A stretch of DNA of 18,165 nucleotides from a virus (lineage: Duplodnaviria > Heunggongvirae > Uroviricota > Caudoviricetes). How positions within the stretch are numbered: the first letter of the stretch is position 1; each line of letters starts with the position of its first letter. Made by a program: the position numbers and the translations under genes. Shown piece by piece: positions 14,401-16,114 of this stretch. The stretch lies in the IMG/VR virus record IMGVR_UViG_2681813004_000010; one strand, given 5' to 3'. Below the pieces are notes generated by a model, which was given only the letters and a program-made list of their open reading frames with translations, searched no databases and was not told where the DNA came from.

Positions 14401-16114
14401 CAGGCTGCGGCATTTTGTCCGCGCCGGGCTTCGCTCACTGTTCAGGCCGGAGCCACAGACTGCCGTTGAATGGGCGGATGCTAATTACTATCTCCCGAAA
14501 GAATCCGCATACCAGGAAGGGTGCTGGGAAACACTGCCCTTTCAGCGGGCCATCATGAATGCGATGGGCAGCGACTACATCCGTGAGGTGAATGTGGTGA
14601 AGTCTGCCCGTGTCGGTTATTCCAAAATGCTGCTGGGTGTTTATGCCTACTTCATAGAGCATAAGCAACGCAACACACTTATCTGGTTGCCGACGGATGG
14701 TGATGCCGAGAACTTCATGAAAACTCACGTTGAGCCAACCATCCGTGATATTCCGTCGCTGCTGGCGCTGGCTCCGTGGTATGGCAAAAAGCACCGGGAT
14801 AACACGCTCACTATGAAGCGTTTCACCAATGGTCGTGGCTTCTGGTGCCTGGGCGGTAAAGCGGCAAAAAACTACCGTGAAAAGTCGGTGGATGTGGCGG
14901 GTTATGATGAACTTGCTGCCTTTGATGAGGATATTGAACAGGAAGGCTCTCCGACGTTCCTGGGCGATAAGCGTATTGAAGGCTCGGTCTGGCCAAAGTC
15001 CATCCGTGGCTCCACGCCCAAAGTGAGAGGCACCTGTCAGATTGAGCGTGCAGCCAGTGAATCCCCGCATTTTATGCGTTTTCATGTTGCCTGCCCGCAC
15101 TGCGGGGAGGAGCAGTACCTTAAATTTGGCGATAAAGAGACGCCGTTTGGCCTCAAATGGACGCCGGATGACCCCTCCAGCGTGTTTTATCTCTGTGAGC
15201 ATAATGCCTGCGTCATCCGTCAGCAGGAGCTGGACTTTACTGATGCCCGTTATATCTGCGAAAAGACCGGGATCTGGACCCGTGATGGCATTCTCTGGTT
15301 TTCGTCATCCGGTGAAGAGATTGAACCGCCTGACAGTGTGACCTTTCACATCTGGACGGCGTACAGCCCGTTCACCACCTGGGTGCAGATTGTCAAAGAC
15401 TGGATGAAGACGAAAGGGGATACGGGAAAACGTAAAACCTTCGTGAACACCACGCTCGGTGAGACGTGGGAAGCGAAAATCGGCGAACGTCCGGATGCTG
15501 AAGTGATGGCAGAGCGGAAAGAGTATTATTCAGCGCCCGTTCCTGATCGTGTGGCTTACCTGACCGCCGGTATCGACTCCCAGCTGGACCGCTACGAAAT
15601 GCGCGTATGGGGATGGGGGCCGGGTGAGGAAAGCTGGCTGATTGACCGGCAGATTATTATGGGCCGCCACGACGATGAACAGACGCTGCTGCGTGTGGAT
15701 GAGGCCATCAATAAAACCTATACCCGCCGGAATGGTGCAGAAATGTCGGTATCCCGTATCTGCTGGGATACTGGCGGGATTGACCCGACCATTGTGTATG
15801 AACGCTCGAAAAAACATGGGCTGTTCCGGGTGATCCCCATTAAAGGGGCATCCGTCTACGGAAAGCCGGTGGCCAGCATGCCACGTAAGCGAAACAAAAA
15901 CGGGGTTTACCTTACCGAAATCGGTACGGATACCGCGAAAGAGCAGATTTATAACCGCTTCACACTGACGCCGGAAGGGGATGAACCGCTTCCCGGTGCC
16001 GTTCACTTCCCGAATAACCCGGATATTTTTGATCTGACCGAAGCGCAGCAGCTGACGGCTGAAGAGCAGGTCGAAAAATGGGTGGATGGCAGGAAAAAAA
16101 GCGGTGTCTTATAA
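14375..16114 (+). pseudogene. A: terminase large subunit gpA, copy 2, truncated after codon ~575 (fused to E 3' sequence, ends …GRKK-SGVL-stop)
   Basis: MNISNSQVNRLRHFVRAGLRSLF… is collinear with lambda gpA through …[12 protein letters not shown], then reads 4 codons into E-derived sequence and stops. Copy 1 shows the normal continuation (…[16 protein letters not shown]…GEDE), so ~66 C-terminal codons are missing here. Confidence 0.85.
15134..16100 (+). repeat. direct repeat copy 2 (A gene segment), partner at 1-967
   Basis: See copy 1. The repeat ends at the A7 run (16094-16100), where copy 2 diverges into E sequence. Confidence 0.95.

Follow-up and report, generated by a model that had tools for sequence, protein, structure and literature searches.

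The subject of this article is a fusion of two lambdoid head genes in a stretch of viral DNA of 18,165 bp (hereafter the window), which is the complete contig AOTC01000230.1 of the draft assembly GCA_001447405.1. Near its right end the terminase large subunit gene A is cut at codon 575 and joined, in another frame, to codon 237 of the capsid gene E. In our opinion this A::E joint is an ordinary deletion scar of illegitimate recombination, of a kind that recurs in decaying lambdoid prophages. A preliminary description, made from the sequence, took the truncated A to belong to a second lambdoid prophage copy, and this part finds no support in the window. Judged by its genes and its DNA identity to known islands, the intervening 8.7 kb is a helper-embedded phage-inducible chromosomal island (HE-PICI, below also the satellite), inserted at codon 81 of E, and the window holds just one set of W-B-C-Nu3-D and one set of E3'-FI-FII-Z-U. 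The satellite is of a published class apart from its missing attR, and the fusion is of a recurrent class of prophage-decay scars. Taken alone, the fusion would be one more deletion scar in a decaying lambdoid prophage; its value comes from its position at the right end of the satellite, if the contig is right. The account that we prefer, tentatively and somewhat short of calling it probable, is that a pre-existing A575::E237 deletion was attached to the right end of the satellite by recombination.

The A::E joint

Positions 16084-16114 of the window read ggatggcaggaaaaaaagcggtgtcttataa. The open reading frame (ORF) from 14375 to 16114 encodes a gpA-like product, in which 575 A codons are followed by four foreign codons, SGVL, and a stop. 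When the region is aligned with the first copy of A at the left end of the window (…GGCAGGAAAAAAA followed by TACTG) and with the intact E of other prophages (…CTGGGCAAA followed by GCGGTG), the joint falls within a run of seven A at 16094-16100, with an overlap of 3 nt (AAA), and the breakpoint ambiguity comprises the last three A, 16098-16100. An alignment to a reference had been proposed in order to place both breakpoints; on the intact prophage L005 they lie at A nt 1726 (codon 575/576 of 641) and at E nt 711 (codon 237 of 341). Past the joint the E-derived frame (…KAVSYKGMYGDV…) runs to the normal E stop at 16415, and this frame differs from that of A. The preliminary description was accurate here: its coordinates and codons for the fusion, including the change of frame and the 4-codon tail, agree with translation and alignment, and so do the parental A and E sequences that it gave.

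Both parents of the joint are identified and they overlap by a few nucleotides, as is characteristic of an illegitimate joint. It had also been suggested that the overlap is the signature of microhomology-mediated illegitimate recombination. The position within the A7 run, the AAA overlap and five similar joints in other prophages (see below) agree with that mechanism. Because 5.7% of random A/E join trials reach a microhomology of at least 3 nt, the AAA overlap is compatible with microhomology-mediated joining and alone is weak evidence for it.

The joint itself is very probably real, because the longest word that the two parents have in common there is about 8 nt, too short for a k-mer graph or an overlap assembler to make such a join. 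A false join of the de Bruijn or overlap type at this place is ruled out, as the parents have only GATGGCAG or words of the size of GGAAAA in common. A single-nucleotide polymorphism (SNP) at 16057 (G; T in copy 1) is linked to the joint, 43 bp upstream of it. An integrase-made joint is ruled out as well: by eye there is no resemblance to the att core aagccgaagca, and the breakpoint lies about 470 nt away from the att site. Misassembly between repeats, which the preliminary description had named as the circumstance that could overturn its reading, very probably does not account for the joint, but it may well affect the link between the satellite and the scar, which depends on how the repeats were resolved. 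As for an ancestral molecule in which W to D still lay next to the joint, the window shows just one W-D set, and that set is upstream of the satellite.

The predicted loss of 66 C-terminal residues of gpA is borne out by translation, SGVL standing in their place. The truncated protein keeps the ATPase domain, and the Pfam nuclease profile is covered at positions 2-260 of 294. What is left is less than a functional lambda-type large terminase, which combines complete ATPase and nuclease domains with a prohead-binding C-terminal end. Docking on the portal of the prohead is reportedly carried by the extreme C-terminus of gpA. Docking of gpA on the portal as such has been documented (PMC2366019).

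Other A::E deletions

Five other independent A::E joints were found in E. coli lambdoid remnants, with overlaps of 2-12 nt and with W to D lost in all of them. Four are A539::E147 in CUPS03 (L002), A520::E136 in W137 (L016) and OXA-181, A412::E183 in 1303 (L027) and EC26, and A351::E151 in PCP06173 (L028). All of these are plain cryptic prophages with no satellite, those of 1303, EC26 and PCP06173 being Qin-like. They are like the window in that A is fused to the 3' part of E, W to D are gone and FI and FII come next; Nu1 is intact in them. Unlike the window, they have other breakpoints and follow a normal lysis cassette and a phage cos, with no satellite upstream.

The fifth joint, A382::E236/237, occurs in seven contigs of 0.9-2.5 kb from metagenomes and the Sequence Read Archive (L009-L015: ERZ1090838/842/855, ERR3453551, ERR2843827, ERR3453538, ERR3453549). 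Its E-side breakpoint is identical to that of the window to the nucleotide (…AAAGCGGTGTC), and these contigs and the window encode an identical 103-residue E 3' ORF product. The A-side breakpoint lies 580 bp farther upstream than that of the window and the flanks are 2-3% diverged; on the A side both the A382 and the A575 sites consist of GATGGCAG with an A-rich run directly after it. The contigs were found via the exact 103-residue product, and because such a search would accept any breakpoint within about 60 nt, the chance of the E-side coincidence may be put at 1 in 10 to 1 in 20 rather than at 1 in 1000. The common E-side breakpoint could be due to descent with a secondary deletion of 580 bp, or to a hotspot.

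A helper-embedded satellite in gene E

The 8.7 kb between 4911 and cos are not prophage early DNA. The genes found there are int (5074-6309, with Arm-DNA-bind_3 and Phage_integrase domains), alpA (6311-6541), a D5-type primase/helicase gene (8724-10544) and ssb (11074-11511), followed by late genes for an E-like capsid protein (11823-12863), a D-like decoration protein (12873-13214) and an AlpA-like helix-turn-helix (HTH) protein (13226-13609), and then by cos. The Pfam matches include Phage_AlpA, D5_N/DUF5906/Pox_D5, SSB, Phage_cap_E and HDPD. The E-like capsid protein is 42% identical to helper E. An HE-PICI of the class E:Phage_cap_E:80 is expected to have alpA, replication genes such as a primase, and capsid genes together with cos in its late zone. 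All of these are present here, and int comes directly after E codon 81 on the plus strand, in the same orientation as the interrupted late gene.

In E. coli 980-2 an island with 99.3-99.4% identity to the DNA of the satellite sits in E of a lambdoid prophage, between E(1-81) and E(80-341). In the window homology to intact E stops at 4910. The identity block aagccgaagca is present at 4900-4910 and the next 80 nt agree with the published attL alignment; the attL of the window reads …gtcaagccgaagca on the E side and cttagcatggctttctgagg… on the satellite side, and it agrees with the attL alignment and the identity block of the E:Phage_cap_E:80 HE-PICIs. The attR is another matter: E nt 240-710 are missing from the contig, where E restarts at nt 711, and the relatives of the satellite carry attR. 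The integrase would fall into the clade of integrases of this class, an assignment that is drawn from 99% DNA identity to listed members and not from a tree.

On these features of sequence, 4911 to about 14162 is a helper-embedded PICI of the published class E:Phage_cap_E:80, inserted at E codon 81 of copy 1. The class was surveyed with 201 instances (Tommasini, Mageeney & Williams 2023, PMC10111431), and CP018206, one of the matches to the window, is listed in a table of that article. The satellite of the window shares with the class (11capE type) the attL with its identity block, the location at E codon 80/81 and the common orientation with the late operon, as well as the four zones, namely int-alpA, a variable early zone, primase-SSB, and a late zone with E-like and D-like genes and cos. 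Its DNA is 97.7-99.4% identical to islands in strains listed there, e.g. CP018206. It is unlike the class in having no attR and in having its usual right end replaced by phage-type Nu1-A(1-575). The element is common: in 94 of 5,426 complete E. coli genomes the alignment spans 80% or more of the window, and the HTH protein of the satellite occurs in more than 14,000 index blocks.

The usual right end of the relatives consists of cos, the satellite's own terS (183 residues), a cargo gene (DUF2971 or others), attR, and E from codon 80. Between cos and attR the relatives have a cargo hotspot (loci L017-L026, at about 8400-11000 in each locus). Its contents across relatives include terS with DUF2971, HEPN_RiboL-PSP with GmrSD, an AF_1680-family gene, DUF3892 and others, and several of these cargo genes look like anti-phage defence genes.

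A few other details of the satellite were observed. The ssb gene contains a perfect tandem duplication of 82 bp at 11322-11486; compared with the relatives, the frame is shifted past residue 110 and the C-terminal tail of SSB is replaced. A cluster of direct repeats, GTGTTCAACAC(C), lies at about 7861-7921, upstream of an icd-like gene (located from L001 24361-24421), and direct repeats of the type GGTGAACAGTT lie at about 10547-10735, just 3' of the primase gene (from L001 27047-27235). Both clusters are likely operators or origin iterons.

The cos-Nu1 block

Satellite and phage have a segment of about 530 bp in common (13634-14162), where their identity is 95-100%. SNPs specific to the satellite reach 13862, and past 14162 the sequence is phage-type Nu1-A, so that the switch from satellite to phage lies somewhere in 13863-14162. 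One PICI in IMG/VR has the alleles of 14087 and 14106, and its homology stops at 14162; hence the switch may be as late as 14162. The identity between the window Nu1 and the TerS of the 980-2 satellite is 72% and is confined to the first 74 residues: the 5' end of Nu1 is indistinguishable from satellite terS, and its 3' part is of phage type. Judging by these markers, cos and the start of Nu1, at least to 13862, are the satellite's own. The preliminary description counted cos, Nu1, most of A and FI-FII-Z-U as what the second prophage copy keeps. All of these are present indeed, but cos and the start of Nu1 carry satellite markers to 13862. In comparison with related composites, the block of Nu1 3' and A(1-575) stands in place of the 3' part of terS, the cargo gene DUF2971, attR and E nt 240-710 (codons 82-236).

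The cohesive end itself is peculiar. The cosN of the window, GGGCGGCGACCT at 13666-13677, is the canonical lambda sequence. This is unlike 980-2 and SCU-102, the satellite relatives whose sequence was read, which have GGGCGTCAGGCG. All five cosN differences from those relatives (L001 30084-30095 and L006) fall within the 12-nt cohesive end, and the flanks are satellite-type: the phage-type patch spans 13671-13677, with satellite-type markers 4-17 bp on either side. For the cos stretch of the window no complete genome exceeds 94.7% identity, and for the cosN region none of the 62 related satellites in complete genomes exceeds 99.1%. It may be that these satellites normally own a distinct sticky end and that the satellite of the window was converted by a phage. 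Since a phage-type cosN amid satellite markers must come from real reads, the patch shows that satellite and phage exchanged sequence at cos in the lineage of the window. Other hybrid cos-Nu1 sequences of satellite and phage were not found in JGI metagenomes, and the single match in IMG/VR is an ordinary PICI. The order HTH-cos-Nu1-A might also be thought to arise by cos-to-cos end joining of a packaged molecule extending from the phage cos to the satellite cos (cosP-to-cosS). As the sole cause this is ruled out, as satellite markers are still present over the 185 bp that follow cosN on its right (13681-13862).

The possible link between satellite and scar

Positions 1-967 of the window are repeated at 15134-16100 (repeat X) with a single mismatch, T at 924 and G at 16057, the two copies being exact over 923 bp (15134-16056). 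The G allele of 16057 is also found in phages such as 2B8, which makes a new mutation at this site a disfavoured explanation. Both copies carry an allele at 540/15673 that is absent from the best database matches. The site 15133, directly to the left of the second copy of the repeat, is polymorphic among lambdoids. Because 16057G is a natural allele and the contig break adjoins the polymorphic 15133, the sequence suggests a separate allele for copy 2 rather than a recent duplication of copy 1. The identity over 923 bp may partly be a by-product of an assembler that reuses a graph node.

Three genome structures fit the contig. In structure (a) the contig is right. In (b) the assembler mis-paired within the 923-bp repeat; the satellite would then be followed by a full-length Nu1-A-W… as part of an elongated PICI, of a tandem duplication or of a circle, and a separate deleted prophage would carry the joint. 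In (c) the right end of the satellite is normal and the contig jumped, within a cos-Nu1 repeat of 190-300 bp, into a separate deleted prophage. The two parts of E favour (a): over 3825-4910 (E 5') and over 16098-17691 (E 3') there are 0 mismatches to the same L005-type lineage, as expected for one interrupted gene. L005 is also the prophage closest to the flanks of the joint: the A side differs from it at 4 of 2014 bp and the E side at none of 1594 bp.

Several observations weigh against a scar that sits in the genome where the contig has it. Position 1 of the contig is the exact first base of repeat X, the start to be expected of a path-extending assembler that sets out from a repeat node with two predecessors. 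The path 1..15133 returns to its own beginning as a cycle of 15,133 bp, whose only unused edge is the exit to E237. Moreover, the contig path crosses an exact satellite/phage repeat of 190-300 bp. For these reasons the physical link between satellite and scar is unproven and rests on the repeat resolution of the assembler. The arrangement is also a singleton. Megablast against 5,426 complete E. coli genomes found no exact A575::E237 joint, and exact joint patterns have no match in GTDB representative genomes, JGI metagenome contigs, IMG/VR or INPHARED phages. A satellite followed by phage-type Nu1-A is found in 0 of the 62 related satellites in complete genomes, and no donor prophage with a plain A575::E237 deletion is visible. 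Two further searches gave a similar picture: in a set of about 15 billion proteins the exact truncated-A product comes from a single contig, and among 10 representative contexts of the HTH gene none has the satellite followed by full-length Nu1-A, different cargo genes being found there instead.

Origin of the arrangement

According to the account that we tentatively prefer, a lambdoid relative that already bore the A575::E237 deletion would have recombined with a helper that carried the satellite. The first exchange would lie in the cos-Nu1 homology and the second in E3'-FI or beyond, and together they would have replaced the 3' end of the satellite's terS, the cargo gene, attR and E codons 82-236. 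Such an exchange fits because the region to the right of the satellite cos is a variable cargo slot. It is, however, quite possible, if in our opinion somewhat doubtful, that the assembly was mis-threaded, i.e. that a real A575::E237 joint in a separate deleted lambdoid prophage was wrongly joined to the satellite via the 923-bp repeat X or via the 190-300-bp cos-Nu1 repeat. The window being an entire draft contig that begins on the first base of repeat X, next to whose second copy lies the polymorphic 15133, is just what a repeat node with two predecessors would give; the self-closing path with E237 as its only unused exit, the lack of phage-type Nu1-A after any of the 62 satellites, and the existence of simple A::E-deleted prophages free of satellites all point in the same direction. 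On the other hand, read pairs normally bridge a repeat of 190-300 bp, the phage-type cosN patch amid satellite markers, obtainable only from real reads, shows that satellite and phage did exchange sequence at cos, and the E 5' and E 3' parts match the same L005-type prophage without a mismatch.

An event in situ within a single prophage seems unlikely to us. It can be imagined in two versions. Either a broken right end of the satellite invaded the resident cos-Nu1, copied Nu1-A up to codon 575 and was sealed to E237 by microhomology, or an unequal cos/cos exchange duplicated the stretch from Nu1 to E 5' and a later deletion of 4.4 kb between A575 and E237 removed the second W-B-C-Nu3-D. The identity of the copies over 923 bp and their common allele at 540/15673, absent from the best database matches, would be explained by either, as would the combination of one homologous junction with one junction of 3-nt overlap. 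Duplications that end at E codon 80 do occur, given that the left flank of attR in Eco6102.18 is E 5' sequence (PMC10111431). Yet the identity of the copies holds by construction if the assembler used one graph node twice. In addition, their sole difference, 16057G, is a pre-existing natural allele and hardly a new mutation, and the break of the contig at 15133/15134 implies a divergence at that place of the two copies, or of a third one. The occurrence of this E-side breakpoint in a lineage diverged by 2-3% further suggests that the E237 breakpoint is older than this genome, or a hotspot. Improbable as well is the reading in which the contig is correct and the PICI has just taken the 3' part of Nu1 and A codons 1-575 from its own helper via the cos-Nu1 homology. 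If it were true, source and recipient of late genes, 99.9% identical, would lie in one molecule, and the truncated terminase might also interfere with packaging of the helper. Very improbable indeed is an adaptive capture, in which the terminase genes of the helper would do work in the late zone of the satellite and the truncated gpA would inhibit packaging of the helper in a dominant-negative manner. Capture of late genes by PICIs has been proposed (PMC10111431), the Nu1-A block does occupy the variable cargo slot, and the ATPase domain is intact; but the case is a singleton with no conservation, the contig lacks the attR by which the element could spread through excision, and a 4-codon out-of-frame tail with a leftover E fragment resembles an accident rather than a designed gene end.

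Homology-facilitated illegitimate recombination reportedly combines one homologous anchor with one microhomology joint, and is said to concern DNA acquired by transformation. The window is alike in having a homologous junction (cos-Nu1) and a junction with 3-nt microhomology. The satellite-scar combination also resembles the alternatives named 'late gene capture' and 'PICI/prophage fusion' in PMC10111431. In elongated PICIs, e.g. Eco6102.18.E_Phage_cap_E_80, which are the examples of 'late gene capture', late genes of the helper lie in the late zone of the satellite; intact att sites enclose the captured segments, which are never identical to a resident prophage (PMC10111431). The window is like them in having helper late genes next to the integration site and helper segments out of phage order. 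It is unlike them, Eco6102.18 being known to us from its published description, in that the block is 99.9% identical to the resident A, the attR is destroyed and the end is an out-of-frame fusion. An elongated PICI has the late genes of its helper inside an att-bounded satellite; in the window phage-type Nu1-A lies to the right of the satellite cos, there is no attR, and the linkage is that of a draft assembly. The authors who proposed late-gene capture had observed no direct pair of source and recipient (PMC10111431).

Implications

The consequences for this particular genome depend on the contig being right. The satellite would then lack attR, so that its own integrase could not excise it. 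The E gene of the helper could never be restored, and a capsid could be built only with the E homologue of the satellite, which is 42% identical. Beside full-length A, the late operon would express a truncated gpA able to bind Nu1 and ATP but unable to dock on proheads. Nothing suggests any selection for such a locked state of satellite and helper.

More generally, and on the same condition, the common cos-Nu1 segment would be a working recombination handle between helper-embedded satellites and their helpers. Late genes of the helper could enter the variable slot at the right end of the satellite, and the 'late gene capture' proposed in 2023 would thereby have a concrete route. Exchanges of this sort would also be able to tie satellite and helper to each other, as attR is lost and the capsid gene is beyond restoration. 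There is also a caution for genome scans. A satellite in a prophage late gene gives the appearance of a second cos and a second Nu1, and a draft contig that runs through an embedded satellite is unreliable.

Gene map and mosaic structure

The window begins within the lambdoid gene A and ends within the tail gene U, and its features are collected in the table. Both of its ends (1 and 18165) are probably repeat boundaries in the assembly graph.

Table 1. Features of the 18,165-bp window, with coordinates, strand and the basis of each assignment
Feature	Position	Strand	Basis
A (terminase large subunit) copy 1, 3' 372 codons, cut by the contig end	1..1167	+	ORF list
Helper head genes W, B (portal), C/Nu3 (S49 protease/scaffold), D; single set	1164..4610	+	ORFs; collinearity with annotated prophages L001, L003, L005
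E 5' fragment, codons 1-81 (to 4910) and 9 read-through codons into the satellite	4666..4941	+	translation
Helper-embedded PICI	4911..~14162 (9.25 kb)	+	Pfam; DNA identity to island of E. coli 980-2
cos-Nu1 5' block common to satellite and phage	13634..14162	+	SNP comparisons, three-way and six-way; cosN search
Nu1 (small terminase), hybrid	13855..14400	+	Pfam Phage_Nu1
Truncated A (copy 2): codons 1-575, SGVL and stop	14375..16114	+	translation, Pfam
Repeat X, first and second copy	1..967, 15134..16100	+	self-BLAST
A7 run holding the A::E joint	16094..16100	+	alignment with both parents
E 3' fragment, codons 238-341 (last ~105 codons); called ORF from GTG at 16104	16101..16415	+	translation
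FI, FII (16867-17220), Z (17232-17807), U (17804 onward, cut by the contig end)	16457..18165	+	gene calls and Pfam

The helper prophage is itself uneven in its relationship to L005, the closest prophage. Positions 16098-17691 are 100% identical to it. Over 1-4910 there are 40 differences, of which 39 lie within 1339-3824, in B and C, and the stretches on either side, 968-1338 and 3825-4910, have none. With this distribution the portal and protease genes seem to contain a patch of mosaic recombination at 1339-3824.

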